Shown here: positions 1-52,358 of the stretch, in pieces | How positions within the stretch are numbered: the stretch's first letter is position 1 | Layout of the letters: each line of letters begins with the position of its first letter | From: Amoebophrya sp. A120 | Taxonomy: Eukaryota > Protista > Dinoflagellata | Assembly (NCBI GenBank): GCA_905178155.1 | Contig: CAJINV010000007.1 | Coordinates: 1,643,341 to 1,707,340, forward strand | Direction: 5' to 3' | Length of the DNA stretch: 64,000 nucleotides | Notes under the pieces: model-generated | Told to the model about the DNA's origin: nothing | Databases searched by the model: none | The model's input: the letters and a program-made list of their open reading frames with translations, nothing else | Made by a program: the position numbers and the translations under genes

Positions 1-807
1 GCGCGCCAACCTCCGCCCACCAATTTCGCTCTACGCGCCTTTCGACAACGGGAGCAGGCTGCGGCGCGGAGGACAACTCCTGGCGAAGATCGCAACAGGG
101 GCTTGGGAAATCTCGAGGCGCTGAGACGTGCGTTACCACCAGACGGCGGTACCCAGGAAAAAACACCCATCCCCATCCATTTTTTGCATGACCGATAGTG
201 GATTTTATGCATGTTCTGCATCACAAATTGGATGGGGATGGGTGTTTTTTCCTGGATAGGCGGGCTGAGCAGTATACAAGAAGAGGAGGAAGAACAACAA
301 GTGGGTGAAGATGTTATTTTTGATACAACCAGTGGCGATGCAGATGCAGATCTACTTCATGCGGAAGACGAAGATGCCGAAGCCGAGCAACAACAGAGAG
401 GAGGCACCAACATTATTCAGCACCAGGACTCCTGGAGGCCAGCGCCAGAGCTACAGTTTCGCCCGCCGGCCCTGCCCACCCTTCTCGCTGTTCCAGAGCA
501 GCTGCAGCATGAACTACATGACTTTCCCTCCCCTGCGCCGCCAGGTGGAGGAGCTCTTGCAGCAAAACCTAACAGCAGAAAAAGACAGCTGGAGCGGTCC
601 CACAACTACCACAACGGGTATCTTCGTCTTCCTGATTTCGTTCCACAGGAAGCAACTACACCTACAGAGCCCGGTGTTGTTTTACCGCCTCCAGGACGCG
701 AATCAACGCAGATGATGAAGTATAGCAATATCGTGCCAAGGCATGCAGGAACAAACCAAGAGTTGTTGCCAAAGTCCTCGACTGAGAGGGTGCATGCCGA
801 AGATTAA
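1..807 (+). CDS. 3' part of a low-complexity acidic/Pro-rich hypothetical protein, interrupted by introner IE1
   Basis: Frame 1 is open from base 1 to the element at 150, hits a stop inside the element, and resumes in the same frame (GLSSIQEEEE...) to TAA at 807. Confidence 0.7.
150..258. mobile_element. Introner/MITE-like element IE1, family A (109 bp)
   Basis: TIR TAcCCAGGAAAAAACACCCATCCCCATCCA ... TGGATGGGGATGGGTGTTTTTTCCTGGATA; direct repeat GGCGG at 145-149 and 259-263. Confidence 0.93.
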
Positions 808-2234
808 CCGTATGCTTGAATCAGGTCGTCGATGTTGCCTTGGACATCACAAAGTGCGGTTGGTAAGATGGCCACGAGGAAATTCCACGGCGGGCAGTTA
901 AAAAAGCGTCCGGACGAACGTTTCCTCACTAATATCTTTTCGATGGAAAATTTTTATCTCTTGTTCACCATCATGTTGTCACACAAAAATCTTTGTATAT
1001 TCATACGCATGGTAGCCATCTCAAGCTTTACCTTTAAGAATTATCGCAAAAACATACAAGTACACGAACAAGCATAAACCATACGATCAGTGAGAATTGT
1101 CGTTGTGTCTGCTTCGTTACCCTCCAGCGTTCGACAGCAAAGGAGCCGTGCAGTTTCGCATTTTTCTGTCGAGATACTGACAACTGATACCCTACATCGT
1201 GCCGATACCGATACAGATTTCGATTTTTTTTCTTTTTTGACTCGGATGAAGAGGAAAAAAGATAGAAATTCGACGAAGCTTTTGCTTCGCCTCTCTTGTT
1301 TTTAGAGAAACTAGGGGCGGTGGAAAATTGCCTCTATACTACAGCAGAGCCTTCCGAGGGGTCAAAAGCAAGGTGTATGATCACGGGAGAAAGACGCTTG
1401 TTGGAGCTGAAAGCATGGAAGCCCTAGCGCTGGAAAATATCAAAAAGAAGAATCGCACTGCATAATCGACATGCCAAAAGTTGTGATGTGGTATAAGGCG
1501 TAAGCGTATCCCTGCAAGAAAAGAAGAAAAAGCAGAAGGAATGTAGCCCCGGTGTGTTACTTACTGGCGTTCTGAGGATAGAGGAAATTGACGACTGCAA
1601 GTTCTGATTTACCGGGTCGCTGCTGAAGAAGATCGTACTTCCCTTTTTACCCCCGTCACGCAAGGCTGCCCTGCTTCAGTGACGCAAGGCCAACGAACCG
1701 GCGTGAGTGTGAGAGTGAGTTCTTCCCATGAAGATCCCTGCTTTCCTCACTAAGGAAAGCTCGATCGTTGCTGTCCTATCAGGATAAAGAAACAACAAGA
1801 TGAAGCTCCTGAGTCTGAGTGATAGACTGCATAATTGTATGGACCCGCGATCAAGAACATGGAAGCCGAAGCGGAAGTACGGGGTGTGGATCTCCAGGAT
1901 CACGGTGTTGAAGTTGTGTTTCGGTTTATTTCCACAACCATGGAACGCAAGTTTTGTTTCATTCTGAGGATCTAGTTTACATGATAGATGATTTCGATAG
2001 TAACAATGGTGGAAGTTGTTCCTGGTTGAAGTTGAAAGGTACCAGTTGTACCGCACAACACGACCAGCAGGAACAAGAGAAAGAGTTCATAGCTCTACAT
2101 ACTTCTGGAACAATCAATGCACATCGCAGGATTCTGTTTCGCCATTCACATTGTGTTGAGTAGCTGCAATAAAGTTAGTTTTACCGGCTTCAGAGCTAAA
2201 TTTGATTTTCAAAAGCTTCAAGAAATAAAACAAG

Positions 2235-4820
2235 ATGCCTCGTTCCACTGCTCATCTCTCACGCCACCGAGTTGTGTCTATCACTTGTGTCGTGGCGTGG
2301 ATATTGCCCGGTTGTAGCTTGTTGACCACACAGCTCCTGCAAAGTGTCCTCGTAGAGGCGAAGTGGAAAAAAGCGAGTTCCTCTAGTACAACTCAGGAAC
2401 AAGCACCACAGCGGGTGCCGGACCACAGCTCGCCGCTTGCTCAGGACGACGTCGGAGATATTTTCGTGTTCGGCGCTACTTCTCCTTCTGGGGGGACAGG
2501 GACAGGCCGTAGCCGTACGTTTGTTCGCCGCGGTCGCAGCTTCAAGAACGGAAGTTCGTCGAGTACAGCAGCTGCAGCCGGTGTCGTGTCCTCCTCGAAT
2601 TACGGCGAGGAATCATTTCTAAGTAGAAACCGGAACAAGAAGAGGGCGGTGTTTTCAGAGCAGGAGCAAAGTCTCCGCCAACTGTACCTGCACCTGCAGC
2701 CGGCGCAATCTGTCTACGTGCCTGAGCCTGGTCCCAATGATTTTCATTTTCGCGGTGAAGATGTTCCTGGTGTTCCGCTCGAAAAGGGAAGTGCTGTTCT
2801 GCTGCACCAACAACACGGTCGTGATGGAGGTGGTTCCCGAGAAGAAGCAGGAGTTTTAGAAGTACCTCGTCCAGCAATTATAGCAGGCGAAGATGGCGCA
2901 TCCGCATCTACTTCTCAGGAACAGCATGAAAACGACGAGGGAATTCAAATTCAGCAGGAACAACAAACTGAAACTTCTGGCATAAATGCTCTGGCGGATT
3001 TGATGCATCAAATGGAAATTTCGCCACGGGACGAGATTGTGGAAGCACAGCATGACGAACCGTCGGAAGTCGATGTTGAAACCGAAAGCACTCCTGAGGA
3101 GGCGGAACACGAAGACGAGCTACATGGTCTGATGAGCCAAGGAAATGTGGAAAACCACGATGACGAAAGTGAAAGAGAGGATGAGGACAATGAAGATCCC
3201 AATAACACGGATCACGATCATGATGAACAAGTAGTCGAACCTGAGCCCTGGAGGTGGTTCCCTCTCGTTTCAAAAAATGGAAGCGGCGGAGATCTCGACG
3301 TTTTGCCGCAAGCCGTGCAGGAGCGTATTGCAAGCCATTTTTTCGAGGAGGAGGTCGACGAAGACGCGTTGGCGGAGATTTTGCCGCTCCCCGCGCCCTG
3401 GGAAGAGCGGAAAGACGAGACCTTTCCCGGCAAGCCGCTCTTTGTCAATCCCGTCACCGGGGAGGCAACTCTGGCCCGACCGCGCCGTCCTCCGCTTGGA
3501 CCTGACTATCTTATCGACAGGGAAGAGCAGAGATATTCATCGCACTAGTAGTCGTGAGCATGCTTGTGGTCTAGTATGTACATGTAGTTGGCAGATGCAT
3601 CTACTTGAGAGGAACCACAAACGCAGTCTGTCTGTCGTGCTGGAAACGTCACATTCACGGTCAAAAAGAGAAAAGAGAAATTTGTGCTGTTGGATTCCAA
3701 GAAAACCTACGATTGCGAGACTTTTGCACAGCATGCGTCGGGCAGTCAAAAGTTTAGGTGGGCGTGTTGCCTACCACAATGTCGTGCACGATCTGTACCA
3801 ATGGGAGCATCCTGGAGAGATGGAAGAAATTGAGTACCTCAATGACGATGAGTATGCTAGAGATGTCAGATGTGTGTAATGAAATCGACAAAATGCAAGT
3901 GCTGGTATGCATCATAAGCATCTGGTGTAATTCTACTCACTGCAAAGTACGTGTTGGTAACCATGACCAGTGGGCGAGCAGATCGTTATTTCGAGGCAAA
4001 CATTTTTCGAGCACCCGATGGGACAAATTGTAGGCCCAAGAAGTACTTCTTGTGTTGCTTTTTTATTGCGATCCCACGACAAGAGGTTTTTTTTGCATTT
4101 TTACGATGTCCACCCACGACCTGACACCTACATACTGTTCTGGCGGAACTCGTACTTCCCGAGCCCTGGGTCCGGGTGGGGACACCACCGGCCGACCCGG
4201 TATCAAATGTAAAAATGTCTGGGTCTGGAAGAATGCAAGATTTGTGATGCAGGTTTTCCATGACCCATGAGGTCTGGAATGCGAGACCCAGCATGACAGA
4301 TTCTTTGAGGTCTCTATCGTGCCTTTCTTGCGTGAGAAACTCCCTCTCAACGTGGTCAAATGCGGACAGCTTTTGGCACTCACGCAACACAGATTTTTGC
4401 ATCATTCAGATTTAGCAAGACAGGTTCTAATCTTCCAGACCCAGACATTTTTGCAATCCATACCCGGAGCTGTATCACAATTCTGTCACGGGCGAGTTGA
4501 CATCGACCCGGCCTCGGCTGCCGCCTCTCATGGGAAGCCCGACCTGGCGTGCCTACCGCACGACCAACCCGGTGGGCCCGATATGGTACTGGAATATGGA
4601 GACCGGACATTGTCAGGCCGAACACCCGGGCGGCCGTGTGGAGGCAGAACGAGCAGAACAAGACCACGTGGTCGCTCCACCGCAGCACGATGTTGACCTT
4701 CAGGGTCAGGCTTCGGAAGAGGACGTCGTGCACGACGTAGCAGCACGAGACCATCGAGAAGGTGGAATAAACCTTCCGGCCGTGCTGGAAGGTCCGGCTC
4801 CGGTCGCGGAGGGGGAATAA
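2235..4820 (+). CDS. Putative secreted acidic protein with about four C-terminal WW-like domains (exons about 2235-3520, 3736-3864, 4137-4200, 4468-4820)
   Basis: Hydrophobic N-terminus. WW-like units: LPAPWEERKD..GKPLFVNPVTGEATLARP, GGRVAYHNVVHDLYQWEHP, LPEPWVRVG..ELYHNSVTGELTSTRP (formed across IE2) and PTWRAY..PIWYWNMETGHCQAEHP. The first two junctions are uncertain. Confidence 0.6.
3519..3735. mobile_element. Decayed family-C introner remnant (left boundary approximate)
   Basis: 3716-3735 CGAGACTTTTGCACAGCATG matches the family-C terminus CGATACTTTTGCACAGCATA. 3538-3551 CATCGCACTAGTAG matches the other arm. No intact TSD. Confidence 0.55.
4201..4462. mobile_element. Introner IE2, family B (262 bp)
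   Basis: TIR core AAAAATGTCTGGGTCTGGAAGA ... TCTTCCAGACCCAGACATTTTT with TAT/ATA ends; TSD CCCGG at 4196-4200 and 4463-4467; removal rebuilds a WW domain. Confidence 0.93.
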
Positions 4821-6735
4821 ACACGAGCGGAGGCCTGGTAGAAACCGGTCCTCCCGGTGGGTCCGACGTATGGTAATTGTATACCTCACTCATAGGTACT
4901 GGCACTCGCACTACAGCTATTTGAAGTGCGAAGGATGAAGTCATGCCATCGTGTTTCCGAACTCAAAATAATGTAAGTATAAAATGAAAATATCGTTATC
5001 GTATTCGTATACCTATACGACGAACAGAAACAGTTGAAGAGAGTGGAAAAGATCAGGAGCAGAACTAGGACCAGTCACAGGCTCTTGTAGAAATAATCGA
5101 GCCAGGATTTTTAGTTCTTGTTGAGCTGTGACATTCAGTGTCTATACATTTACATAGGACTGCAAGCATTCAAATCGGTTGTTATTGACTTTATTTCGAG
5201 TGCTGGAGGCATTCATACGGCCTACACCTACATGCAGACGTCTGCGAGGCATGTTATTGTCGTTGATGTTGTGCGACGAGGATGTTGCGCCACTGAGGTC
5301 CACCAACGGCGAAGCTGTGAAAAGAGTTTTTCCACATGCTCGCCACATATGGATGGACGTTTTGTTTTGCGGCTACAGAAGGACTTACTAGAATTTTCTG
5401 TCTTTGCTTTATTTTTCGAATTCGGCATTGCAGCCTGAAAAAGGAGCAAGAGAAGCATATATTGAACAATTTTTGACGATGATGTTGTACATGGTCATGG
5501 ATTTGGATATGCATAAAGCTTCATTATGGATCGCAGCAAGCGGATCATGTGAAATAGTTTGGAGGAGCGCCACGACCACTCGAAGGCATTGTATGATTGA
5601 AGAACGTAAACAAGACAAAAAGATCAAGATGAATTTGAATGATCGAAGAAAAATAATTGAAGCAAGACGAGAGGGAATAAACGATCCTCAGTGGTTTTTA
5701 TGTGCAAACATTGTTTGCCAGCATGCGTTGCGTGGGAACAAAAGTGGGAAGACCTCCAAGGGCGGTCGGCAGCTATTGTTCATCTTGCAGAAGAACTTCT
5801 GGTAGTATTACAGCCTGTTCTTGGTAGCTCCTCTTAAAGCCTGATGGAGGATTAGCATAGGCTCGTATGCTACGGAGAAAGAAGAAAATGCACTCGATCA
5901 GGACATGATCACGTGTGGACTTGGATCATCCTGAGGAAGATCGCGCTCTTCACCGGATTTTGTCTTTTATTGGACGACGGTAGCAGCACATATGACAATG
6001 ACATCGATCAGGGATCTTCATCTTGTTTATGGTCGAAAACGGTTTCTAATTCTATGTTGGTCTAGTTCTTGTCGAGCCTCCCTCTACTACTCGGTGTCAA
6101 CGTGGTCTACAGGTAGGGCTCTCTCGAACTCCGAGATGGCAAGTACAGTAGAGTTGTTCGAAAATCATCATGACAATAATTGTGGACCGGCACCGCCACG
6201 ACCGGCAGTCAAACTCAAAGGTAAAGGAAAAGCAGACGCAAACAAGCTTTAAGCTCACATACCGAGCCGTGATCATTCTCCTGTGTCGCGCTCGTGGTCA
6301 TGGTGCAGTTGCATTTCGACGATCTACGGATCACTAAACGAAGATCTCAACAGATAAATTCCTTCTGATGGGCCTTTGCCGCTGGCACAGATATACACTG
6401 TTACTTTCTATCTGTCTATTCTCCAACACCACACCACAATCAGTCAAATACGGGTGTTACCATAATTCGTATGTATGGAAAGTTTTTTCCTTTACGAAGT
6501 CTTGTAGCAGTTCTTCCCGAGCTCCTCCTTCATTTTTGATCGACCGCACGACACAAACAGTACAGGTTTTGAAACGCCAGTATTTGGTTCGGTTTTTTAT
6601 TGCTACTCTTGGTCTTGCCAAGTGCAAGTACTTGTATAGGCTTTGTGTATAATATAATCGCGTAAAAAGAACAAGAGAATTTACAACGCAGGAGCACGGG
6701 CAGCTCATCTTCCTTGTTGTATCACTTACTTCACC

Positions 6736-7710
6736 ATGGCGAACCACACTAGTATGGCCAGCCTCTTGAGCACTACATCTACACACAGCTGGCGCAGCTG
6801 CGCTTCTGCGATTCTCCTGCTTAGCGTTTTTTCGGACCCCGCCACCATTTTCGGAAACGCTATGTTCGCGAAGAACAGGAACAACTTGAGGCCGAGACAG
6901 GAAACAACTCCAACTTTTGCGTCGCCTGGTACAGCAGTTCTATCTGCACTCTCGTCGTCCCGCTCCAGCGCTGACGACCTTCAGAGTGGGCGGGGTGGTC
7001 GTGGTATTCGGCTTACACCACATCCCGTGCTACCAGTGAACCACGTTGCCGATCAACCTGGGGAGTTCCTCCGACAGCTTGTTCGGTTGAGTCGCGCCCA
7101 TCACCAGGGAAATCCGCTCCCCGAGATCAACACAAGAAGAGACGCGATGGCCTTCACTGCGCTGAACGAGGGGATTAGATTGAAACCCTACCAGGACCAC
7201 CTTGGCTACTGGACCGTCGGGGTCGGCCACAAGCTGGGTGGCCCGGAGGAACTGGACGCGAAAACTAAGCTGCCGAAGCGAGGAACGAGTGCTTATTCCG
7301 AGGCGGAAATCGAAGCGCTTTTTTTTCGAGACTACGAGGAGCATGCGAGAACTGCTGCGAAAAACGTGCCAATATTCGCTTATCTCAATGAAGCAGGCCA
7401 GGCCGCGCTGGTCGACTTGTACTTTAACATGGGCGCGGGAACGATGGCGAAATTTAGGCAGTTTCACGCGGCGCTGAGAGAAGTGCTCGAACTGAATGAC
7501 GAGAAAGGCGATAGAGCCGTTGAAATCGCGACAAATGCACTTTTGTACAGAGATGCGTTTTATCCGGAAAAGGGTCCATCCGGATACGCGGCGCAGCATC
7601 AGCAGCAGGAGAAGAACGGGCAACTATCACGGCCGAAAAAAGTTGCGAAGATGCTGCGCGACTCACTAGAGAAATTTCGCGAAACAAACAAGAAATCAGT
7701 GCGCGGCTGA
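6736..7710 (+). CDS. Phage T4-type lysozyme (glycoside hydrolase family 24) with N-terminal hydrophobic leader, intronless
   Basis: NEGIRLKPYQDHLGYWTVGVGH gives E-x8-D-x5-T, the T4 lysozyme Glu11/Asp20/Thr26 spacing; QAALVDLYFNMG resembles T4 AALINMVFQMG. Confidence 0.88.
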   Translation: MANHTSMASLLSTTSTHSWRSCASAILLLSVFSDPATIFGNAMFAKNRNNLRPRQETTPTFASPGTAVLSALSSSRSSADDLQSGRGGRGIRLTPHPVLPVNHVADQPGEFLRQLVRLSRAHHQGNPLPEINTRRDAMAFTALNEGIRLKPYQDHLGYWTVGVGHKLGGPEELDAKTKLPKRGTSAYSEAEIEALFFRDYEEHARTAAKNVPIFAYLNEAGQAALVDLYFNMGAGTMAKFRQFHAALREVLELNDEKGDRAVEIATNALLYRDAFYPEKGPSGYAAQHQQQEKNGQLSRPKKVAKMLRDSLEKFRETNKKSVRG

Positions 7711-8491
7711 CGACGCAAGGTAAAGGTAAAGGTAGGTACAAGAGAATTACTCGAGGCTAAGTGGTGTACTAATTTTTTTATTTGGTGCTTGTTATTAATT
7801 TTGCTGAAACACGCACGCAGCTGTTTTTTCTTGAATCGCATTCCTTACCCCGTCGAATTCACAAATTTGTTGTAAAGAAAAAGAGGACACCGTAACGCTG
7901 CTGCAGTATGTAGAATTTTTGTACCACAGCGACCGACGTGTACGTGACACTGACACTAAGAAAAAGAAAAAGCTTCAGCTTGTGGCGAGCAAAGGCCCCC
8001 AACCACAGTGACACACCATGCGATGTTGATATTTCGAAAAACCTTTCACTAGTGTTGACTTTCTTCTATAAAGGGAGCAGCTAAAAAATTGTTCGACCGC
8101 GCACCAGGGCGGCAAAGGAAACATGATCAGACTCAGAGGTTGCCATTCTTACTGTGGAAGATCCTTTGGTATGTTCATCGACGAGCTGGGGGTCTCCAGA
8201 AGTCTTTATGTAATGAGCCACACCGCGATGGATCTTACGCTCAATGGTTGGGTAAATGCATCGGGAGCCTTGCTGATGCGAGATAGTTGTTGTGCGAAAA
8301 GGAGATCGTCGAGATCATCTGGAATTCAGTACGTCACAATCCCATAGATGAAAAACTAGCAACGTATGCTTCGCCTGTAGAAGTGTGAAAAAAAATTAAG
8401 TTATTCCGCTAGAGCGAAAAACAAAAAATAGAACCAGAACAGGAAGTCAAAAACTCCTGCTCTGTTTCAGTTGATCTCGTTCTTTCTGCCA

Positions 8492-8743
8492 GGTCGGACT
8501 TCGGGTTGGAGCGCCCGCCATCAGTTCGCTATATAGCGAACTCATGGCGGGGACCTGGTCGGACCTCGGGGTGGAGTGCCCGCCATCAGTTCGCTATATC
8601 GCGAGCTGATGGCGGGCAGCCGGTCGGGCCTCGGGCTGAGGTGCCCGGGGACCTGGTCGGACCTCGGGGTGGGGCGCCCGCCACCAGTTCGCTATATAGC
8701 GAACTGATGGTGGGCAGCTGGTCGAGCATCGGGTTGGAGTGCC
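8492..8743. repeat. Tandem array of three 38-42 bp palindromes with GC-rich spacer repeats
   Basis: Consensus GCCCGCCATCAGTTCGCTATATAGCGAACTGATGGCGGGC at 8514-8551, 8577-8618 and 8676-8715; spacer GGTCGGACCTCGGGGTGGAGT variants occur about five times. Confidence 0.9.
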
Positions 8744-8924
8744 AGCTGTTTAAGATTTTGAGAGCCTGCGGCGTCGCATTTTCTGCCAGCGCCGAAAACG
8801 CTTTCTTTATCCAGCTTTCACCGCCTTGCGTGCTATTGCTTGTGCAATTCCCCATAAGTTTTTCAAATTCTGCCGTTGGCCTTCTGCTGCACGCTTTGCC
8901 TTTCTCCGCTTGCTTGCAATTTTC

Positions 8925-9446
8925 ATTTTTTGCTTTTACTTTCTACCTTTAGTTTTTACTTTTAGACTTTCCTTTTAGTTTTAAGCTTTTACGTAGTCTT
9001 TACTTATAGTTTTTACTTTTAGCTTTGTTTATGTTTTGCTTTTGCCTTTTACTTTTAGCTTTTACTTTTGGCTTTTACTTTTAGCTTTTCCTTTTAGCTT
9101 TTACTTTTAGCTTTTAGCTTTTAGCTTTTAGCTTTTAGCTTTTAGCTTTTAGCTTTTAGCTTTTAGCTTTTAGCTTTTAGCTTTTAGCTTTTAGCTTTTA
9201 GCTTTTAGCTTTTAGCTTTTAGCTTTTAGCTTTTAGCTTTTAGCTTTTAGCTTTTAGCTTTTAGCTTTTGCTTTTACTTTTGGCTTTCGCTTTTAGTTTT
9301 TAACTTTAGCTTTTACCTTTAGCTTTTACCTTTAGCTTTTACCTTTAGCTTTTGCTTTTAGCTTTTGCTTTTAGTTTTTAGCTTTTGCTTATTACTTTTA
9401 GCTTTTGCTTTTTACTTTTGTTTTTTGTTTTTACTTTTTGGCTTTC
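8925..9446. repeat. (TTTTAGC)n satellite with degenerate flanks
   Basis: 23 perfect TTTTAGC copies at 9105-9265; flanks are TTTTAC/TTTTGC/TTTTACC variants. Confidence 0.97.
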
Positions 9447-9846
9447 ACTTGCGGAATAATAGTTTGGCCATCACACTCTTACTCTTAGCAAGGGATAGAT
9501 TAATATGCGATATTTTACCTCTAGATGGTAAGCCGTCTATCTCAACGACCCGTACCTATTTCATCATCAAAAATTACAATTACCACAGCTAGCGATTCAG
9601 ACACTCGTCGTGGTACTTTGACGCGATAGTTATTTTTCAGAAGTGTGACTTTGAGTTCTATACACTAGTTGTTTAAAAATTCAGTACCGTCTATCGAGGG
9701 TCGTTGGAATAAGAGGCAACGCCAATCACCACGGTATAAAGGAAAGGAAAGTAAAAACCCAAAGTCGCATTAACGCACGGTATTGCTTTCCGATCTTTCG
9801 TTTCTTTTTTCTGACCTAGATTTTTTTCCAGGACTGACACAAAAAA

Positions 9847-10764
9847 ATGGCCTTGTCCGCTACCAAGAAAGCGATTTTCAGCCTTTTCGTGCTGCTAGGA
9901 AGTAGTTCTTCCATGAGCGGCACCAGCATCTGCATCCTGGTGAGCGCTAAAAAATCAGCCTCGCCCACCACGACTGGGTTTCAGAAAAAACTTTCCCGTA
10001 CGGAGTCGGGCGACTCGAACCAAAATTCGACACAGGCTCCAGCGTCGCCTCTGCAGCGCTCGCTGTCTGCCGATCCTTCGCCGCGGAATAATACTGAAGG
10101 GATCAGTGTCGTGTCTTGTGATGAAATTCAAAATCTGGTGACAGATCGCCATCGGCGCAGCGTCAAGGTTCGCTTTGAAATTGTGGAAAAAAATGGGCGG
10201 AAGCTGCACGACAATCCCATCAATGTCACTTTTCCGGACCACCGGCCCATGCGGGCCCTTTACGACACGGCCGCGAGGTTGATCAAAAACTCGGACGTTA
10301 CTAGTGAGCAGATCGAACTTAAGAGAATCGCCACAAAAAATGGCCAGCGTGAGTACAATCTCAGGTGGAACTCTACCAACCGGAGCCTAGCTTTGGCGAA
10401 CTTTCCGACTTTGTTTCCCACGGGGGAGGGAGCGCCGGCTGTTCACCTTCAGGTGAAGGTGAACCCGGATCGGGTTCTTGTGAAGGAACCAAGCACGACG
10501 ACGCATAGTACGGAAATAAAGAACGCAAAGGAAAAATCAAACCTGGTGCAACACCACGCAAACAAGGAAAACATGCAGCAGGACCAAATCGCACACAGGA
10601 TGAAGGTAGAAGAGTGGATGAAGAAGCACGCCGGGGGCAAGTTTCACGTGCGAGGCGAGCGGCCGCCGGTAGAGACGCCAAAGGATAATCTGGCCCGGAT
10701 TCTCTCCATGCGCGGTCCTGATGCGCCCAAGCAGCAATGCCATCCACTTTTGCGGCCGTGCTAA
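9847..10764 (+). CDS. Putative secreted protein with a ubiquitin-like/UBX-like domain, intronless
   Basis: 305-aa ORF; signal-peptide-like start (KKAIFSLFVLLG); beta-grasp-like pattern SVKVRF...VTF....MRALYDTAARL...SLALANF...VHLQVKV. Confidence 0.65.
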   Translation: MALSATKKAIFSLFVLLGSSSSMSGTSICILVSAKKSASPTTTGFQKKLSRTESGDSNQNSTQAPASPLQRSLSADPSPRNNTEGISVVSCDEIQNLVTDRHRRSVKVRFEIVEKNGRKLHDNPINVTFPDHRPMRALYDTAARLIKNSDVTSEQIELKRIATKNGQREYNLRWNSTNRSLALANFPTLFPTGEGAPAVHLQVKVNPDRVLVKEPSTTTHSTEIKNAKEKSNLVQHHANKENMQQDQIAHRMKVEEWMKKHAGGKFHVRGERPPVETPKDNLARILSMRGPDAPKQQCHPLLRPC

Positions 10765-12012
10765 GTACTTACCGATTCATCGTCATGTCATTCAGTAGTA
10801 AACAGTTCTGAGTCTGACGAATCGTGATACGCGGTCGACATCGCTTGATATTTATGATTTTGAATCTAAAGGGAACTACTAGTTTCAAATGTTTTGAGGA
10901 GAGGCGTTGTTGTCTTTCACTACAGCATTACATGTCGAGCACGACAATATCATGATGCATCTCGATAGTTGTTGTACTGTTAAGTTGTATTCATCGAGAA
11001 TTTTAGATAGCACTGGATGGGAGAATACTGGTTTTGAAAACCCCCTGGTTCTCTGCCCGGCGGGAGCAACTTTCTTGCTGCGCAATGGCCATGGCTTGGT
11101 TGCAAGTGCAACAGAGCCTGATGTGATGCTCACTGCGCAAGACCGCAAATGTTTCGCTGTCACCATGCTTATTTCGAGATATGTGCGAAAGACAAGAAAA
11201 AGAATCTGATGAGACAAAGCAGAACCCGAAGCAAGCAGATTCTGCAGATGTGCACCAGCAGTGTATCCAGAATGTTCGCGTCGAAGCTACTATCTGTTTC
11301 TCTTATGGCTTCACTTTCAATTCCAGCATAAAAGTGCTCGCGCTGCAAACACTACTACTAGCAGCAGCAATCTATATCTTATCGTATGAACATGAAGTAG
11401 ATCATGATGAGGAAAATGAAAAATACTTCTGATACTCACTACGTACTCACTATTTCGATTTCCGTGAGAATGAAAAAGATGAAATTTTCGCTTGCTGCTC
11501 TTTAGAGACCGATCGTAATCGATGGAAATGAGGGGTCGTAAAGATTGCATCACGTCATCATGTCGAAGCTCGAGCTCGTAGGGAACGATAGCGATTCCGA
11601 TTCATTCCTTTTGGAATGATGTTGTCACGATTAAGTAATAGCGTACTCCAGGAAACAAGCAACTTCTAGTACTCGAATTTTATTCTGACAGCGACAACAG
11701 AGCTTATGTTTGCTTTATCGTGTTTGATATTGCTGCTGTGTAAAATTCCTATCCCTCATGTGTTGCTGCTCTTGGTTTTGACTTTGACATTGATATGGTA
11801 ACGCTAAAGGTAATGTATGATATAGTTCTAGTTTATCATCTTTCATCATTGATGTTGCAGCAGACTTTTGGTCAGTTTTGTATTTGAGGAGCCATTGGTT
11901 CATATTACAGTGCAAAATTTAAACTTCCCTCGCTCTGGAATGCTACACAGCAACATTATCGATTTTTACAACTACGTCCATCTAGATTTATGTTTGTTGT
12001 ATTGATGCAGTC

Positions 12013-14952
12013 ATGAGCTTTTCCTTTTTCCCATCTTCAGCGCGCAACAAGAAAAGTTCCTGCAAGCAGAAGTTCCTTTCTCGCAAAATGAAATTTCTTC
12101 CAAACTTTTCCAACCAGCTCTCCAGTGTAGCATGTTTCTTGTTTTTGGGCACCATTAGTACAAGGAGTACAGCAACATTGGTAGATGCAAAATCTATGTT
12201 GCTCCCTCCGGACGAAAAAACGAAAACTCGTTTTGATCAGGAAAATCCCACGACGATGGTGCCCATTACGACAGAAAGTAGAACAGCCGCCAGCAGTCTT
12301 GACGAGCAGCGGGGACCGGTAGATGAAACTGCTGGTTGCAGAAAATCCTTCCGGCGAGCTGCGGTTGTAGATAATCAACATTGTGCAACAAGCGACGGCA
12401 ACAAGAGCAGCAGCTCGTCGTCCGACGTACTCTCTTCAGTTGGCGGGTCGCCTGCTGCGAAGCGCCGCAAAGTGGAGTTTTTTCAGGACGAGATTCCCAG
12501 CGAAGCCTTACCCTGGCTAAAGGACCAAATCGGGACGGCGCCGCGGTTGAAACGCGAGAGACCTCCACAGGAAGACGATTGTATTGATGGCAGTTATAGA
12601 TATAGAAGTAGAACCGCTAGTGGTAGTGCCTCCGCGTCATCCTCCTCTTCGGCGCTACTGCTGCGCGAAGGAGCAGAAGTATGTAACCTCGGTCGGGGCT
12701 CCTTCTTGACCAAAAGGCGACGAGTAGAATTCAGCTGCAGCAACACCGGCGGGGTTCCACCAACATCTGGAAGAAGACGCAGTAGAAGATCGTTCTTGGA
12801 GGAAACAAGAGCAGCGTGGGGCGCGGCGAGCAGCAGCACCAGTTCAGGAAGTAGCGCTGCGGGGAGTGGCGACGAACAAGATTATACTAGTTCGCAGCAG
12901 AGACCAGCACAACAACCGGAGCAGGAGCCCGACACTGATACGACGACCGCGAGTCCCGGGAAAAGTCCCGGGGGAGGACAAGACGACCATGGCAATAGAG
13001 ACGCAGATGAGCAAACCAGTACGGAAGTAAACTCGGAAACGGAAGACGACGAGCAGCTTGAGCACGACGATGATCTTTTTCTATCAAGAGTTAAAGGTAG
13101 AGTGGATCAACGTGGCCTAGAAGAACTACAACAATCTGAATCTGCACGACCCGCCTACACCCCTGCCGAGAAGCATCACAGAAAAATTCTGATGACATTA
13201 CGGCAAAAACCGTTGGAGTCCTGCGAAGTGGAAGCGAAAAAAACGGAAAAGTGGGTGGAGCACCAGGAAAAGACCTACATTTATTTTGACGGGAGAAGAC
13301 CATCTTGGCCAAAAATGAGTAGTCCTTCCGGCGCTCTCGCTTCGACCACCGCAGGACGAGCGGCTTCAGCATCTTCCTCGACAGGAGAACCACAAATAGC
13401 CGCTGGGCAGCACAAGCAAGTCTTTTTTGAAAAGTACCCGAGTGCTTTTCAGTTCAAACACGATCAGGAGAGGAAGTGCGAGATTTTCGAAGCGATGGTG
13501 CTGCGGATCGTAAAAGCCGCCAGCTTGGAAGATTACCACCCGTTCCCGTCGATTTGCAATGACTGGGTGCGGATGTGTAATGTGAATGCGCAGCAGGCTG
13601 ACGGAGATGGAGCTGTACCGCGGTCATCTTCATCAACTAGTAGTTTTCCTACAGCACCACAGGCCGCGGGACCACATCGGCCACAGCACGAAAGGGGTAC
13701 AACTGCTGGTAGCCGCCACACCGCGCAAGTGGACTTTCTGCAAAAGCTGGTCGATAAAGCGGAGAGGAAAGTGACCTCGATCATTCACACACGGAAAATC
13801 AATCTAGGGCACGACGATCGACGTCACGTCGTGCCAACAAGTACTACGGACGACGTCGAACAAGATCATGGCGATGACTTTGTGAGCATTCGTTTCGTCG
13901 GCGACCAGTGTTCCAAGGCGGTTCGATTCAACAAAAACGCCCTGGTGGCGGAGTTGTTTCAGGAAGCGGCCCGGTTGTTTGAAAACCCAGAGAACGCGAG
14001 GGAGAACATCGACGAAAGCGTGATTGATTTGTTGTACCCCATGGATAGCAGCGCATCGGCCAGCGGCTCATGGTCCGCCGGAAGTGGGGCGATGTCCTCT
14101 GGAGAAGCTGCACCAGCTGCGCAGCATCAAGTGTTCTACCCCATGCGCGGATTTCTGCAGCAAGACGAGTCGGAGTCTTTGGCTAACTCGGGTCGGTTTG
14201 ACAACTCCATTGCCCTCCACGTCCGGGTGATGAAACCGAGGAGCAAGCGCTCGCGGGGAGATGTTGAAGATGATACAACCACGGGGGCGGTCGTGGGGAT
14301 GCCCTGGTGTGGAAAAATAGTAGACGGCGACCCTCCTGGTTCTGTGGACTTTCACTTTGACGAGGTTGATGAAGAAGATGAAATGGACTACGATATGGAA
14401 GACCAACAGGGTTTGGGTTCGGCGTCACAACAACAGCACGAGCCGACCTCTGCTAGTTCAACAGAAATATTATTACCTGGCAGCGTCGCAACGGCCGCTG
14501 CCGCACCGGCGGAGGCCAATAGCACTATGGCAGCAGCGCATGCGCAGTCAGGACAAGGTGGACGAGATTCGGATCCAATTATTACGACGAGATTGCCACA
14601 CCCGTTGCTGCAACAGGCCCTGAACAATATCAGCATGGCAGCAGCGCAGTCAGGACAAGGTGGAGGACGAGATGATTCGGATCCAATTATTACGACGAGA
14701 TTGCCACACCCGTTGCTGCAACAGGCCCTGAACAATATCAGCAATGAAAACCGCAACCGCGCCGCTAATCTGAATCATGGCAATGGGGTGTCAATGTTCT
14801 TACCCGGTTCGCCTGATAGTAGTACAATGGGAGCAGGTGGAGGTGACTCGTCGCCACCATTGTCCCCGCGTCCGTTTGAACTCGTCGAGGGAACCTACCA
14901 CATCGGGCCGGACATGCGCTTGCACAGGGTGCAGAGGTACCCGCCTGTGTAG
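12013..14952 (+). CDS. Large low-complexity putative secreted protein with NLS-like motif and UBX-like domain (start may be ATG 12088)
   Basis: 979-aa ORF; hydrophobic VACFLFLGTI; PAAKRRKVEF; VSIRF..AVRFNKNALVAELFQEAARL...FYPMRGF...ESLANSG...LHVRV. Confidence 0.75.
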   Translation: MSFSFFPSSARNKKSSCKQKFLSRKMKFLPNFSNQLSSVACFLFLGTISTRSTATLVDAKSMLLPPDEKTKTRFDQENPTTMVPITTESRTAASSLDEQRGPVDETAGCRKSFRRAAVVDNQHCATSDGNKSSSSSSDVLSSVGGSPAAKRRKVEFFQDEIPSEALPWLKDQIGTAPRLKRERPPQEDDCIDGSYRYRSRTASGSASASSSSSALLLREGAEVCNLGRGSFLTKRRRVEFSCSNTGGVPPTSGRRRSRRSFLEETRAAWGAASSSTSSGSSAAGSGDEQDYTSSQQRPAQQPEQEPDTDTTTASPGKSPGGGQDDHGNRDADEQTSTEVNSETEDDEQLEHDDDLFLSRVKGRVDQRGLEELQQSESARPAYTPAEKHHRKILMTLRQKPLESCEVEAKKTEKWVEHQEKTYIYFDGRRPSWPKMSSPSGALASTTAGRAASASSSTGEPQIAAGQHKQVFFEKYPSAFQFKHDQERKCEIFEAMVLRIVKAASLEDYHPFPSICNDWVRMCNVNAQQADGDGAVPRSSSSTSSFPTAPQAAGPHRPQHERGTTAGSRHTAQVDFLQKLVDKAERKVTSIIHTRKINLGHDDRRHVVPTSTTDDVEQDHGDDFVSIRFVGDQCSKAVRFNKNALVAELFQEAARLFENPENARENIDESVIDLLYPMDSSASASGSWSAGSGAMSSGEAAPAAQHQVFYPMRGFLQQDESESLANSGRFDNSIALHVRVMKPRSKRSRGDVEDDTTTGAVVGMPWCGKIVDGDPPGSVDFHFDEVDEEDEMDYDMEDQQGLGSASQQQHEPTSASSTEILLPGSVATAAAAPAEANSTMAAAHAQSGQGGRDSDPIITTRLPHPLLQQALNNISMAAAQSGQGGGRDDSDPIITTRLPHPLLQQALNNISNENRNRAANLNHGNGVSMFLPGSPDSSTMGAGGGDSSPPLSPRPFELVEGTYHIGPDMRLHRVQRYPPV
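14527..14742 (+). repeat. In-frame 2 x 108 bp tandem duplication
   Basis: MAAA..QSGQGG..DSDPIITTRLPHPLLQQALNNIS is encoded twice (14527-14634, 14635-14742), with the 3' parts identical at DNA level. Confidence 0.95.
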
Positions 14953-38362: not shown

Positions 38363-41300
38363 ATGACCACGGGCCGGATCATGCCACCGGGTGTGATAGA
38401 CCAAGGCGTGGGCCCACCCTGGACGGTGGAATACGATCCGAACAACGGTAGACCCTATTACTACAACACCCAGACCGGCACAGTCTCCTGGACCAAGCCC
38501 GGTGAGCAGTGGAGTTTATGAACTGCAAAAGTATCGTACTAGTCGTAATTGCAATACAAATTAGAAGCTCAGCATGACAAATGGAATTTGTCATGCTGTT
38601 TTGCCTTGGGATGGAGATTTGTAACGCATGATGATGATTGCAATTACTACGAGTACGATACTTTTGCACAGGATAGAGTTTGAGCTACGATAACGTTTCG
38701 AATCAGCAGTACTGGATCGATGCGCAGGGCAACACAAAACCGCTGCAGCCGTACCTTTTTGAGCGATTTTTTTGTGTTGTTTCTAGTATAGGTCGCGCTT
38801 TCTGCATGCCTTGATTTCGTTTCCAGTATCTAAATTCAAATTGCAGACGAGACTATCAGATGGCTGCGAACTTCATTCTCAACATAACATCGTGATGAAA
38901 ACAAAAAACCGATACAAAAACAGGCCCACGGTGGCCTCCGGCTCCCGACCCGCTACCCCACGAGGTGGTGGATCCACGACGCCGCGCCTCACCCCGCGAT
39001 CGTCCATCCCCGACTGGTTTTCCCAGAACAAAGACTCGCTGCTTTCCGCCAAGTCCATGCAGCCGAAAAACCAGTACGCAGCGGAGGAGGAGATGCGGTT
39101 CCAGCAGCAGCTTCTTTTCCAGCAAAATCCGAATCTCATCCCCGGGATGGGGGTAGGGACACCGAGAAATAACCACCGGCCGGACCCGTACCTCTACACA
39201 CCCGAGGACGCCATGGTCGGGCACGGCTACAACGGTGGGCAGCATTCGGTGAGCGACAGTGTCGTGAGTTCCGCCATGGTGCCCAGGAACACCACCCCGC
39301 GGAAGTCGCGGGTGAGCCCCACGGGATCCAATTCTATCGCGGATTCGTTGCAGAGCCCCATCGTCCAGAACGGGCCGCCGGCGCTGCGGTTGTCCAGTAA
39401 TTTGACCACGACCTCGTCGGTTTCGCACAGTCGCAGTTACAACCTCCCGCCGGGCAACCTTCGGGGCGAGGGCGAAAACGCCGGTCCGCTGAGCGGCGCC
39501 ACGACCCCGCAACGGGGGCCGAGTCCGCAGGGAGTGGCGTCGATAGGGAAGACAATCATGTCGCCCGAGGTAGACGGGGCTGCAGGGGAGGACGTGATCT
39601 CCTACAGCCGGTCGCAGTCTCGATCCGTGGTCGAGCTTCTACTTAACGGCCGGCAAACGGTAAATGACAACGATGGAGCAGCATCAGAGGTCGTCACTAC
39701 ACCAAGAGGCAGTACAAGCATAAACCAGAACTACTCGCCTCGGTATGAGAAGGTCGGCACGCCGCGGCAGTCGACGCCGCGAGGAGGGATAAGTAGGAAC
39801 TACGCAAGCAGCGCTGGTGTAGTTCCGAGAATACAGAATCTGAATGGGACACCAATCCATAATCGAAATAGCAACCAGCAAGCGCCGTCCGCCGCGGCGA
39901 TACAGAATTTCAGAAGCGCCTCAATGGTGTCACCACGCAATAGCGCGTCCTCTACGACTGGTGGAGGTGGATCGTACCACTACAATAACGGCTCGTCGGT
40001 TCTTGTGTCCCCGCGGTACAGCAGCTCCACGCACGCCACGTCGACAAAAGACTCCTCCAGTGGCGCACCTGCCTCGTACGCTTCGTCGGCGTCTTTACAG
40101 CAGGAGCAAAGAACGAATGACCCGTACGGTACTTCTAGTAGTACTGTTGCACCAACTACAACCACCTCTACCCACCATCTTCAAGAGCAACAGCACGATC
40201 CTTACGCTACGTCTGCGGCTGCTCAAGGCTCCTCATCCAACGACCCGTATGCAGCTGCACCGGTCAGTCCTACCGCGGCCAGCAACGATCCCTACGCGTA
40301 CAATAATAGCGCAGTGGATGAGCGGCAAGAGGAACAACACCAGCAGCAGCAGCAGTACTACGGTACTAGTGCAGGTGGGGGCTCGCAGAGCAGCACCTAC
40401 TACAACAGTTCGACGTACCATCAGGGAGGTGCTAGTAGTGGTCAGCACCACCAGCAAGAACAGTATAACAGCTACGAGCAACAGAACTACAGCCAGTATC
40501 CGCCTGGGTATAATAATCTTCCAGAGAACTACGACCACTACCAGCAGCAGCAGCAACGGTCTGATTACCATTCTCGCCAGCAGGACTACTACGGCAACAG
40601 CTACCCACCACCTCTGCCAACCGAGCAAGGCTACCACGCAGGAATGGTGCAGCCCCGTCCTTTCGCTGGTGGTCCGGGTCACCAGGCACCAGGTCCAGGA
40701 GGGCAGCTGCCTCCGGGAGGACCGGGACCGCCTCCCGCCTCTCCCCAGTATATGAATAACCATCAGCATCAGCTGCCGCCGCAGCCCGTCCAGCCGCAGC
40801 CGCGCATACCCCTCTCGCAGGTCAATATGTCGGCCGCGGCGAACCTCCGAACGGGGGGGAATTCTTCAACGAGCATGATGCACCAAAACCTCGCAATGCA
40901 CCAGAGAAATAACCTCCAACTCCAGGCGCAGTACTACGCGCCGGCCCAACCGCTGTTCGCCGAGCCGCAGTTCCATCCGGGGTACGGCATGCGCGGGGGT
41001 GGTGGTGGTCCTGTTCATCCCGGGGCAGGAGGTGGTCCACCGGGAGGAGGTAGCGACCGTGTGATGCCCGTCTACAACCAGAGTCGGGCGCCACAGCCGA
41101 GTCTGCAGCAGATGGATTTTGCGGCGGACCACGAAATGATGCACGGTTTAGAGGAGATGATCCGGGACCCCCGGGTCGCGCGCGAGCGGGACTTTTCCCC
41201 CGACGAACGGGACAAAATCAAGCGCTGGGTCCGCAAGGCGCAGGAGTTCAAGGGACAAATTGTCGAGGCTCTCGCCGATTACTTCTCGGACAGTAACCCC

Positions 41301-43618: not shown

Positions 43619-43649
<31 letters not shown>

Positions 43650-50191: not shown

Positions 50192-50562
50192 CAACAGTAA
50201 AAGTACCAGGCAAGAAGTATTAATCTGGTTTATCGAACCTTTTTGGTGTTCCCTAGCTCACGTTTCGGCTGCTCCCATCTGATTGTCTTCGTTATTTTTT
50301 CTCCTTCGAGATCGGGGTTGCAGTTGCTTGTTCGGCGCCGGTGGTACTTCTTCCTCGAACCTCAACCTTTCCCGTTTGTGCGGCCGCTCACTACCGCATA
50401 TCAGCAGGACAGCGGTATTTCGCTTTCGTACAGACTGGCGGTACTAGAAGTAGTTGTCGAGGCAATTTCATTCTTTTGCAGCGGCTACCGGGGTTGCACT
50501 TGCAAGTGCATGTCCAACGGATCTACTTCATTATCATTTACATTAATATACGCAGAGCAATC

Positions 50563-52358
50563 ATGTCGATCGCCTTCCGCTTTGTTTCATCCAGTAGATG
50601 GATCATGCTCTTGGCTTCATCTGCTCCAGAGCTGCGTCAAAAACCTCTTCGGCCGCGCACCTACTACTTTCCACAGGCGCTCTTCTTCCGTGTGTTGTTC
50701 CTTCTTTACGCTTGCCCCGCAGCGAAAGAAACCCAGAATGTCTTTCCGAACGTTGCGGACATGCGGGATGAGCTTCGCGCCGGTGACTACCGGCTGGTCC
50801 GGCCGAGTCCCACGACTAAGACCGCGGAAGTGCAGAAGCGCTACCGGATGGATGGGACAGTTGCTGCGTTCGTAAAGAAGGTGATGGGACGAGTCAACGA
50901 AGCGAAGGAGACCCTGCGCCGAAAAGAGCTGCTCCCAGCGATGAAGGACGATTTGCAAGAGGAAATCAAAGTCACGGACCAGGAACTGCAAGACAACCAG
51001 CAGACGCTCGAAGAGTACCAGGAGGAGTGGCTATCCAGGAAACAACACCCATCCCCATCCAATTTGTCATGCAAAACATGCATGATAAGCTGCAGTGTTT
51101 GTCATGCAAAAAATGGATTGGGATGGTTTTTTTTTTCCTGGACACTGGCGGCAATCCATCTACCGCCAGTATAACGCCACGCTGAAGCAGCACTTCCCCG
51201 AACCAAGGCAACTGGACTTGGAAGTGATCCACCTGCTGACGACGAACAGCCCAGAAAATCGCCGTGCTTTGGAGCCGCTACTGGGCTACGTGGCGCACGG
51301 CCTAACGTCGTTTGGGAACTTCACGAAACACAGCGAAACGATTGCCACTGCCGCGGAGGCCGTTTGGATTCTTAGTTTTAATGACAAGAAAAACCTATCC
51401 TGCGGATCAAATAAAGTATGGTGCGATGCTCGTACTCATTGCGTTGGTGCATGAACGAGATGATCAAAAGGAAAATTGAAATATAATGATCTTTATCCCT
51501 AGCCTGCACTAGCATTCCAAAGGTGTACTTCTCATGTGGAAAACAAGAAATTGTAACGCACTCTAGCATCCGAGTTCGAGTATGTACGAGAAGTGGCGCT
51601 ATTCTTATTCTTTTGCATAAACCCAAGAGATTCTCACATTCGAGTATAACGCGATCGAGAAGTTGGCAGCGGTGCTCGACAATTACTTCACGTACTACGA
51701 CACCACGAGAGATGAGCAAGATACGGCCATGGCGAACCGAAAGGAGATGAAACCGCCGCAAATCAACGTGGAGGCGGCGAAATTCGCCCCGATCGCCGCC
51801 ATGTGGGCGGCGGCGGCCTTGCAGAACTTGGCCGCGAGCTACTGCAGTTCTTCGTCCTCGAGCCGGTGCGAGTGGGCGTGGGATACGAAATCCTCTCTCT
51901 TACAAAACACCACAGCGGTTGTGATCGACAATGCGTTCAACAGGGAGGACATTATGGCCGTGCTCGTGGAGAGCGAGGGGCATCTGTGGGAGAAAATCGC
52001 GGGGCGCATGCTTTGTCAAAACAGCAACAGTAGGAAATTTAGAGACAGTTTGAAACCAGCCACGGTGGAAGATGTGCGGCAGCTAGCAGTTTCGAAAAAG
52101 GAGAAGGCGATGCTGCAGGACCCGAGGTACATGAACCAACTCGCGGTCTGGGCCTTTGCGGGGTTGCTGAAAAATCTGGCGATACGTACGGAGAGCCATC
52201 GCTTTTACGGGGAGGGAGCCTGGAAGTGTTTGTGCGATTTGACGACGAGCGCAGACTGGTTGGAGAGTAGCAAGGCGGAAAAGGCGATTTTGCATTTGGG
52301 CGGGAATGAAACGGACTGTCAGAAACGGATGAAAACCATGCGACAGAGGGAGCTCTGA
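50563..52358 (+). CDS. Armadillo-like helical-repeat protein with hydrophobic leader and coiled coil
   Basis: Frames join after removing IE8 and a GT-AG intron at about 51416-51629; ARM-like helices AAEAVWILSFN, WAAAALQNLAA and FAGLLKNLAI. Confidence 0.65.
51032..51144. mobile_element. Introner IE8, family A (113 bp), reverse orientation relative to IE1/IE4
   Basis: TATCCAGGAAACAACACCCATCCCCATCCA ... TGGATTGGGATGGTTTTTTTTTTCCTGGACA; imperfect TSD GTGGC (51027-51031) / CTGGC (51145-51149); removal of 118 nt gives EEWRQSIYRQY. Confidence 0.9.

Follow-up and report, generated by a model that had tools for sequence, protein, structure and literature searches.

We consider it probable that the elements described here are introner elements of the A120 type that are retained in the DNA and excised with precision at the RNA level, and that the agent is most likely a spliceosome freed of the need for a terminal G and a terminal AG. 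The phenomenon itself is already known, as such elements were published for Amoebophrya in 2021. The problem that they pose is the base-exact removal of tens of thousands of introns without fixed border letters. Our analysis narrowed this problem to testable statements: neither the insertion site nor the orientation matters, and two specific bases of the element are under a constraint that depends on transcription.

Elements in the window

The window, which is the whole stretch of 64,000 nucleotides that was analyzed, contained all eight elements that the initial annotation had placed in it (8/8), at exactly those coordinates. The division into three families was borne out (A, IE1, IE4, IE6, and IE8; B, IE2 and IE3; C, IE5 and IE7). 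The elements and one isolated end are as follows, with no strand assigned to any of them.

150 to 258, no strand: IE1, family A, 109 nt, TAC...ATA; 5-bp repeat at 145 to 149 and 259 to 263; host frame on the plus strand
3707 to 3734, no strand: lone family-C end that lies outside long open frames and has neither a partner nor a repeat
4201 to 4462, no strand: IE2, family B, 262 nt, 5-bp repeat; weak coding context
16196 to 16466, no strand: IE3, family B, 271 nt, orientation opposite to IE2; RNA contigs skip 276 nt in 4/4 runs
16767 to 16875, no strand: IE4, family A, 109 nt; RNA contigs skip 114 nt in 4/4 runs
16921 to 17070, no strand: IE5, family C, 150 nt; RNA contigs skip 155 nt (not a multiple of 3) in 4/4 runs
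25768 to 25897, no strand: IE6, family A, 130 nt, orientation opposite to IE4, within a protein-kinase domain; RNA contigs skip 135 nt in 3/4 runs; retained in a DNA contig
38517 to 38675, no strand: IE7, family C, 159 nt, orientation opposite to IE5; WW domain immediately before it
51032 to 51144, no strand: IE8, family A, 113 nt, TAT...ACA; flanking repeat 4/5, first base mismatched

An exact inverted repeat of TAT, seven nucleotides, and at least three A nucleotides was present at most ends in the window; the exceptions were the start of IE1 (TAC) and the end of IE8 (ACA). The TAT...ATA ends ascribed to all of the elements were found in six of the eight, and the 5-bp flanking direct repeat was perfect in seven, with IE8 matching at four of five positions. 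No element (0/8) could be read as GT-AG in any equivalent register, and GC-AG was possible solely in IE1 and IE6 (2/8), as the annotation had stated. A window-wide scan for terminal inverted repeats (TIRs) with flanking repeats yielded no further intact elements, although it also overlooked IE6 because of an indel in the IE6 TIR. Rfam gave no matches across the window.

The elements are likely to be non-autonomous DNA transposons. Specifically, they have TIRs and a target duplication of fixed length, they are short, and they lack coding capacity, as do MITEs and other non-autonomous TIR DNA transposons. Their insertion would have been carried out by a staggered-cut transposase or an integrase. 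The families recur within the window, and 11,454 DNA contigs of one run fell on a 19.9-kb stretch, with the depth heaped on the elements. Together with their metagenome relatives (see below), the window elements span 109 to 631 nt, the longest seen being 457 to 631 nt.

All of the elements had been assigned to coding sequence. RNA supported this for IE3 to IE6, and open frames on both sides supported it for IE1, IE7, and IE8. The case of IE2 is weak, as its upstream side offers only 23 open codons with a poor codon score. It had also been claimed that removal of an element plus one repeat restores the frame every time; six of the eight removed lengths are divisible by 3, and frame restoration alone therefore tells little for those six. 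As for the restored domains, Pfam searches with unjoined exon pieces placed a kinase on both flanks of IE6 (profile positions 43 to 149 and 184 to 263) and a WW domain directly before IE7. The "aegerolysin-like" domain was not confirmed at an E value of 0.05, and the unjoined pieces beside IE1, IE2, IE3 to IE5, and IE8 had no match at that threshold.

Removal from RNA and retention in DNA

Four of the eight elements, IE3 to IE6, were tested against RNA-derived contigs, and all four (4/4) were absent exactly, meaning the element plus one copy of the repeat. The skips were 276, 114, 155, and 135 nt for IE3, IE4, IE5, and IE6, respectively, and they lay alongside seven canonical introns in the same contigs.

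17121 to 19575, plus strand: four canonical GT-AG introns, spliced in the RNA contig that skips IE3 to IE5
24839 to 26710, plus strand: three canonical GT-AG introns, spliced in the RNA contig that skips IE6

Because these canonical introns were spliced, the contigs were taken to be RNA-derived and the plus strand was fixed; that runs X3 to X6 were RNA is our guess, made because the seven canonical introns were skipped and positions 21584 to 24201 were uncovered. All seven canonical donors with RNA support began with GTA. IE3, IE4, and IE5 were jointly missing from one contig in all four runs, and the IE6 skip was counted in three of the four because the X5 contigs do not bridge IE6. The joints added up without extra letters (88 = 39 + 49 for IE4/IE5 and 483 for IE6), and a cut outside the repeat that swaps a flanking letter was ruled out since the joints contain no other letters. 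These RNA data consist of cDNA contigs from at most two samples of one study. In the raw RNA run X9, no exon of 9700 to 29600 was covered, and just 63 reads were found, on the IE3 ends.

A 21,552-nt DNA contig ran through IE6 with 0 differences, and the DNA depth over IE6 in one run was 44.3, compared to 42.4 to 46.9 in its neighbors. An empty site in the DNA, the mark of a ciliate-type internal eliminated sequence (IES), was not found for IE6 among the joints listed for the contigs of one DNA run. The skipping of IE3 to IE6 in RNA contigs and the presence of IE6 in a DNA contig support the earlier proposal that non-autonomous TIR transposons are precisely removed here, at the RNA level rather than from the DNA.

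Insertion sites and orientations of relatives

We collected 261 related elements in 140 metagenome loci, which may stem from an organism other than that of the window. In these loci, which were picked around elements, the 261 were spread over 308,725 bases, a density of about one per 1.2 kb, and the 5-bp repeat was perfect in 235 of 267 detected elements, where detection required a match at four of five positions. There were no matches to the two end patterns in viral contigs; the sole match in prokaryote genomes (L141) has no TAT end and was judged to be due to chance.

The insertion sites provided no GT or AG above chance. Canonical U2 borders were no rule among the 144 oriented relatives: GT-AG was possible in 7, compared to 6.0 expected, and GC-AG in 4, as by chance. 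None of the repeat positions in these relatives deviated from the phase-matched background, and a G preceding the element, which would yield GT, was not enriched (45/144 versus 44). The elements also functioned in either orientation. The two orientations stood at 28:30 for family B and 8:13 for family C, and IE4 and IE6, which have opposite orientations, were both spliced.

Polar pattern at the element ends

In 205 firmly oriented elements, position 1 had no variants at the 5' end and five at the 3' end, and position 3 had six variants at the 5' end and none at the 3' end. Thus, the T that opens the element and the third base from its 3' end, an A, were invariant, whereas the mirror positions varied. 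Position 2 (two versus two) and the control positions 11 to 13 (9 versus 11) were balanced; an apparent polarity at position 2 was lost when L013, whose strand call differed between runs, was re-oriented. The permutation P value for the polarity was 0.0024 (0.005 in the worst case), for a pattern of 11 variants that was spotted post hoc and re-tested on overlapping data, with L001 as a possible counter-example. The strands of the relatives came from a codon model, in which site and locus calls were concordant in 147 of 153 cases. When 130 unjoined pieces, drawn from 13 of the 14 loci with variants, were compared with Pfam as an independent check of the strand, only L052 and L076 gave clear matches, both concordant with the final strand.

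On the sense strand, T and A each vary at one place but stay fixed at another; a simple strand bias in mutation would not be expected to produce this. Polar ends suggest recognition of sequence rather than pure structure, and the simplest such reader is a spliceosome that uses U+2 together with a branch A located about 7 nt upstream of the cut.

Hairpin structure

The four elements that were folded form strong hairpins, with z-scores (200 shuffles) of -8.8, -11.5, -8.3, and -3.2 for IE3, IE4, IE5, and IE6, respectively, and positions 11 to 30 are paired in most elements. In the predicted IE6 fold, the terminal bases are not paired with each other, yet IE6 is spliced. There was no excess of G-U over A-C in 138 oriented elements (100 versus 116, P = 0.31), and at positions 11 to 20 the relation was the reverse of that expected (16 versus 36). 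The sense strand had the better fold in 90 elements and the worse in 82. Left/right covariation at positions 4 to 10 was absent in 97 family-B elements (481 versus 477 ± 10), and the pairing partners of the two invariant end bases varied freely. The hairpin thus carried no sign of RNA-level selection, but these tests were not decisive because perfect TIRs kept by transposition would hide such selection. The structure-guided removal proposed in the initial annotation found no support at the termini, where G-U excess and covariation were lacking and invariant bases had variable partners; the predicted inner stem may nevertheless keep the ends together.

Possible mechanism and alternatives

In the mechanism that we propose, the first T of the element would be read as donor U+2 (N/TAT, compared to the G/TA donors of the genome). 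The A at the third place from the 3' end would serve as the branch point, and the 3' cut would be measured from it, about 7 nt on, within the right repeat. The identical TIR at both ends means that either orientation would offer both signals, and the inner stem at positions 11 to 30 might keep the two ends close while the outer 10 bp come apart. The element ends fit the branch consensus only in part. Nearly all spliceosomal proteins and U2, U4, U5, and U6, but no U1, were found in A120, according to the portion of Farhat et al. 2021 (PMC7789003) covered here.

We put forward only tentatively the specific version of this mechanism, in which a spliceosome without the +1 G and AG reads nothing but U+2 and the branch A in transposon ends and cuts 7 nt from the branch, like group II introns; the polar pattern would then be the first sequence signature of removal. 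If this branch-A ruler is true, the two most conserved substrate rules of the spliceosome would be dispensable in a living cell. For TAT...ATA elements, insertion would then be free of cost at every coding site and in both orientations, which would explain how a transposon family floods coding sequence.

A non-spliceosomal endonuclease and ligase that recognize the RNA hairpin and cut at set distances, as proposed for the nonconventional introns of euglenids, would suit the strong hairpins of all four folded elements, the pairing of positions 11 to 30, the immaterial orientation and flanks, and a published survey in which U1 snRNA was not found in A25 or A120. We nevertheless regard this as unlikely, given the lack of G-U excess and covariation, the even split of sense-strand folds, the invariant bases with variable partners, and the splicing of IE6 despite its mutually unpaired termini. 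It is improbable that a spliceosome works in another register, such as one that ends at the last A plus repeat base 1 (an A-N acceptor, compare Fritillaria). A cut after base 1 agrees with the direction of 17 of the 24 repeat mismatches, 82 of 144 relatives allow an AG acceptor (about 71 expected), and a G directly follows five of the eight window elements. Against this, the last A is the most variable end base (5/205), and G at repeat base 1 was not enriched once phase was allowed for (P = 0.44). As a requirement, AG formed from the last A and repeat base 1 failed on the counts in the relatives.

All of the RNA evidence here is cDNA, and a hairpin with a short direct repeat is the anatomy of template-switch artifacts. 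The skips could be reverse-transcriptase switches at repeat-flanked hairpins, with the mRNA keeping the elements in pseudogenes or under ribosome hopping from one repeated codon to the other. cDNA-only "falsitrons" are documented (PMC8240250). We judge this very improbable: if the elements were retained, 138 of 144 relatives would introduce an in-frame stop, with about one element in every 1.2 kb, three elements were missing together from one contig in 4/4 runs, and an artifact offers no cause for polar conservation. Ribosome hopping, moreover, should forbid repeat mismatches at positions 1 and 2 of in-frame codons, but 7 of 23 cases had them. Excision from the DNA before transcription is extremely improbable. 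IESs are TA-bounded, TIR-bearing, precisely removed elements, an anatomy that those in the window resemble; in contrast, the DNA contig across IE6 is unbroken with even depth, among the joints listed and in contigs that drop rare variants, and the constraints are polar to transcription.

The U12 donor is RTATCCT. We rejected a U12-type intron, as the commonest ends were TATCAA and TATG, with some TATCC, and minor snRNAs are reported absent in the literature. Separately, the mismatch-direction test of the cut position leaned away from our favored register. With AT-ward mutation assumed, 13 of 24 mismatches fit a cut after base 4, the favored register, and at non-synonymous repeat positions a cut after base 1 or base 4 fit 7 versus 6 of 9.

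Comparison with known systems

The link that the initial annotation drew to Amoebophrya introners was right and is closer than stated, because A120 is matched in end motif, in the lengths of the repeat and of the elements, and in AT content. There is no difference in kind, and the window may well come from A120 itself; one protein search gave a single match, at 47% identity. In the covered parts of Farhat et al. (PMC7789003), A120 introners have an inverted repeat of TAT, seven freer bases, and at least three A nucleotides, direct repeats of 3 to 5 nt, and variable non-canonical borders, and they are mixed with canonical introns. The window elements likewise have the TAT inverted repeat, a direct repeat (here 5 bp), RNA-supported non-GT-AG removal (IE3 to IE6), and repeated copies. 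The AT content of the window is 48.2%, compared to 48.8% for A120 (PMC12005148, in part). The commonest A120 borders all have T second in the same portion of PMC7789003; this may reflect an aligner choosing among equal registers. Unlike our analysis, that portion of the text gives no orientation counts or polar end pattern.

Among the 21 of 58 A120 rows covered in Gozashti et al. 2025 (PMC12130899), TIR DNA-type families of 252 to 260, 106, 149, and 160 bp have hundreds or tens of copies, about half at non-canonical sites; these lengths are those of families B, A, and C here. Splice-site calls in that source vary by family (co-opt both, carry 5', or carry 3') and so do not fix the splice register, and four window motifs were not found in the 12 of its 14 supplements covered. 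In the literature searched, no removal mechanism or branch point was given for the introners of Amoebophrya; Roy et al. 2023 (Curr Biol) and figures S19 to S25 of Farhat et al. may bear on this.

Euglenid nonconventional introns, as described in part of PMC11282704, are similar in that a TIR hairpin joins the ends, the borders vary, and the junctions are repeat-like. Their stem CAG at +4 to +6 and CTG at -8 to -6 are absent here, and the window elements differ from them in their TAT...ATA ends and in a repeat whose length is fixed at 5 bp. Fritillaria borealis has MITE-derived introns removed by an adapted U2 spliceosome, but with preferred AG-AC and AG-AT borders and a conserved U1, whereas there is no preferred border dinucleotide here (PMC11282704 and PMC13326754, covered in part). 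The introners of Micromonas, Aureococcus, and Symbiodinium, according to the covered part of PMC9860276, carry or co-opt canonical splice sites and need a fitting target, which window-type elements do not, but they too are non-autonomous TIR elements with target site duplications that become introns and favor GC-rich coding DNA.

Precise removal of the elements from RNA

The initial annotation described eight short elements with terminal inverted repeats (TIRs) and 5-bp flanking repeats. All eight were located in the sequence, and they fell into three families as claimed:

150-258, IE1, family A
4201-4462, IE2, family B
16196-16466, IE3, family B
16767-16875, IE4, family A
16921-17070, IE5, family C
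25768-25897, IE6, family A
38517-38675, IE7, family C
51032-51144, IE8, family A

The TAT...ATA ends ascribed to all of them were present in six (IE1 starts with TAC and IE8 ends with ACA), and the flanking repeat was perfect in seven, its first base differing in IE8. As proposed, no equivalent register gave GT-AG borders in any of the eight, and GC-AG was possible solely in IE1 and IE6. The four elements that were folded formed hairpins with z values of -3.2 to -11.5 relative to 200 shuffles.

The RNA evidence consisted of contigs from four runs (all cDNA, at most two samples, one study), which were taken to be RNA by guess. IE3, IE4, and IE5 were absent from the contigs in all four runs (skips of 276, 114, and 155 nt), and IE6 was absent in three of the four (skip of 135 nt). 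Each skip equaled the element plus exactly five bases. Because seven canonical GT-AG introns were skipped in the same contigs and a GC-rich island (about 65%) at 21584-24201 was uncovered in all four runs, we infer that the contigs are RNA derived and that the genes are on the + strand. DNA depth was normal across this island; further stretches of similarly high GC content, near 32-34 kb and 52-54 kb, showed no sequence similarity to it or to each other. At three joints the intervening letters were not reported directly, and record coordinates closed the gap: they gave 88 letters (39 + 49) across IE4 and IE5, and the 483 letters at the IE6 joint matched the only model that stays open throughout IE6 and its flanks. 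IE6 was kept without difference in a 21,552-nt DNA contig of ordinary depth. Thus, IE3 to IE6 are removed at the RNA level, as had been claimed. The RNA contigs gave precise, non-GT-AG skips at these four elements, and the suggested search for empty DNA sites found none at IE6, the single element covered.

Run X9, which consists of raw RNA reads under the same species label, had 63 reads on the ends of IE3 (16206-16243) and none on exons. One variant, also present in sequencing runs X1, X3, and X5, accounted for 57 of the 63. Their source would be another strain or a single abundant RNA that carries the element.

Relatives of the elements and their insertion sites

A metagenome scan with the family B end yielded at least 140 loci (at least 308,725 bases, one assembly) with at least 261 distinct elements, each having at least four of five repeat matches. 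Among the matches listed, seven window elements had a full-length match; six of these were 87-93% identical to their nearest locus copy, IE1 was 83% identical to its nearest copy, and the median identity among the loci themselves was 87%. Since the identities were near the within-loci median, the putative source of the loci is the window organism or a close one. The end motif TAT-N7-AAA was common to all three families, and a sub-terminal TGT(C/G)ATGC was found across families in 232 of 261 relatives among the matches listed; because of these common motifs, the families look, by sequence, like one superfamily. In the loci and the window, TGT(C/G)ATGC was usually 28-50 nt from the element end, and it is a candidate binding site for a transposase or other protein. 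The elements at loci L020, L036, L037, and L054 were longer, at 457-631 nt; their ends and repeats were intact, and their interiors look like captured sequence. A lone family C end at 3707-3734, which had no partner or repeat and was outside long open frames, is probably a decayed or truncated copy.

The window served to train the codon model by which the strands of the loci were set. Among the matches listed, 167 of 233 insertion sites passed the coding filter compared to 893 of 2157 random positions, and site and locus strand calls were concordant in 147 of 153. Borders were analyzed in the 144 elements among the matches listed that had a called strand and frame and perfect repeats: GT-AG was possible in 7 (6.0 expected), GC-AG was possible in 4 (3.6 expected), and none of the five repeat positions departed from the phase-matched background. 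Splice borders were not supplied by the insertion site. Retention would create an in-frame stop in 138 of these 144. The two orientations relative to the gene were represented by 28 and 30 family B elements and by 8 and 13 family C elements (82 of 172 assignable, among the matches listed), and IE4 and IE6, which are opposite in orientation, were both spliced. A codon was centered in the repeat more often than by chance (80:46:41 among the matches listed, p=0.0003; random positions, 291:307:295); after local GC preference, which accounts for part of the bias, p was 0.03-0.04.

Polar ends and the removal mechanism

End variants were detected with the terminal bases left free in 205 firmly oriented elements among the matches listed. 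Variants at the 5' and 3' ends numbered 0 and 5 at position 1, 2 and 2 at position 2, and 6 and 0 at position 3, with 9 and 11 at control positions 11-13. This polarity (permutation p=0.0024; p=0.005 with the ambiguous locus L001 counted against it) was noticed post hoc and is carried by 11 variants. Because variants were absent at the 5' first T and at the A three bases from the 3' end and the pairing partners varied, these two bases appear fixed and their would-be partners free. An apparent polarity at position 2 was gone once one locus was re-oriented.

The simplest reading of the polar ends would be a lariat pathway, and we consider it fairly probable that a relaxed spliceosome of this kind removes the elements. 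The last repeat base plus TAT would read like a canonical donor with a free +1 base and the fixed T as U+2; all seven RNA-supported canonical donors start with GTA, the fourth base being free. Under precise removal, the fixed A would be 7 nt before the 3' cut, and because of this spacing it may be a branch point that serves as a ruler. The branch-to-cut spacing of group II introns is 7-8 nt. In our register, the cut follows repeat base 4 and the centered-codon class is phase 0. This register is weakened by the direction of repeat mismatches, which among the matches listed fits a cut after base 1 (17 of 24) more often than after base 4 (13 of 24), and G was not enriched before the element among the matches listed, which also counts against it. 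The mismatch direction would suit a spliceosome acting in another register, an option that we rate as improbable. In the study of Farhat et al. 2021 (PMC7789003), nearly all spliceosomal proteins were found, U1 snRNA was not found, and the commonest A120 borders had T second, perhaps by the aligner's choice.

The initial annotation had favored structure-guided removal, for which an endonuclease would recognize the hairpin. Selection on the hairpin at the RNA level found no support: among the matches listed, G-U pairs were not in excess over reverse-complement A-C mismatches (100 versus 116, 138 elements), the sense strand did not fold better (better in 90 versus 82), and left and right ends did not covary at positions 4-10 (481 versus 477 +/- 10). 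Pairing among the matches listed occurred in only 52-93 of 138 elements at positions 4, 5, 7, and 10 and in 106-138 of 138 at positions 11-30. Because transposition keeps TIRs matched, these results weaken a role of the stem in removal but do not abolish it, and we regard such an endonuclease as rather unlikely. Artefact and DNA excision are, even jointly, very improbable, and the intact IE6 in the DNA contig argues against the latter. Ribosome hopping over retained elements is disfavored because repeat mismatches strike positions 1-2 of the in-frame codon (7 of 23 among the matches listed).

Relationship to known introners and host genes

A120 introners are described as having direct repeats of 3-5 nt and an inverted repeat in which TAT is followed by seven less constrained bases and then three or more A (PMC7789003); Gozashti et al. 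2025 (PMC12130899) list A120 families of 252-260, 106, 149, and 160 bp; and AT content is 48.8% for A120 (PMC12005148) versus 48.2% for the window. The window elements had every structural feature of the A120 class, so the link to Amoebophrya introners held, and both the phenomenon and the class are already known. The observation in the initial annotation was confirmed, and its interpretation was partly supported. The text of the literature searched gave no account of how introners are removed; the value of the finding is that a specific, cheap test is now on offer.

In the case of the host domains, Pfam searches of unjoined pieces bore out the kinase, which is interrupted by IE6, and the WW domain, which lies immediately ahead of IE7; the other claimed domains were not recovered. 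Additional features of the window were as follows:

6658-7707 (+), ORF encoding a phage lysozyme domain (PF00959, E 3.2e-13); it is part of an array of eukaryotic genes and is a possible horizontal transfer
14517-14743, 108-nt tandem duplication within a long ORF
19547-20992 (+), DnaJ-X domain (PF14308, E 1.2e-33), encoded by the final exon of the RNA contig from which IE3 to IE5 are missing
35415-35455, 41-nt palindrome
8483-9490, three palindromic repeats of ~98 nt and then a long TTTTAGC-type tandem array with a putative telomere-like or structural role
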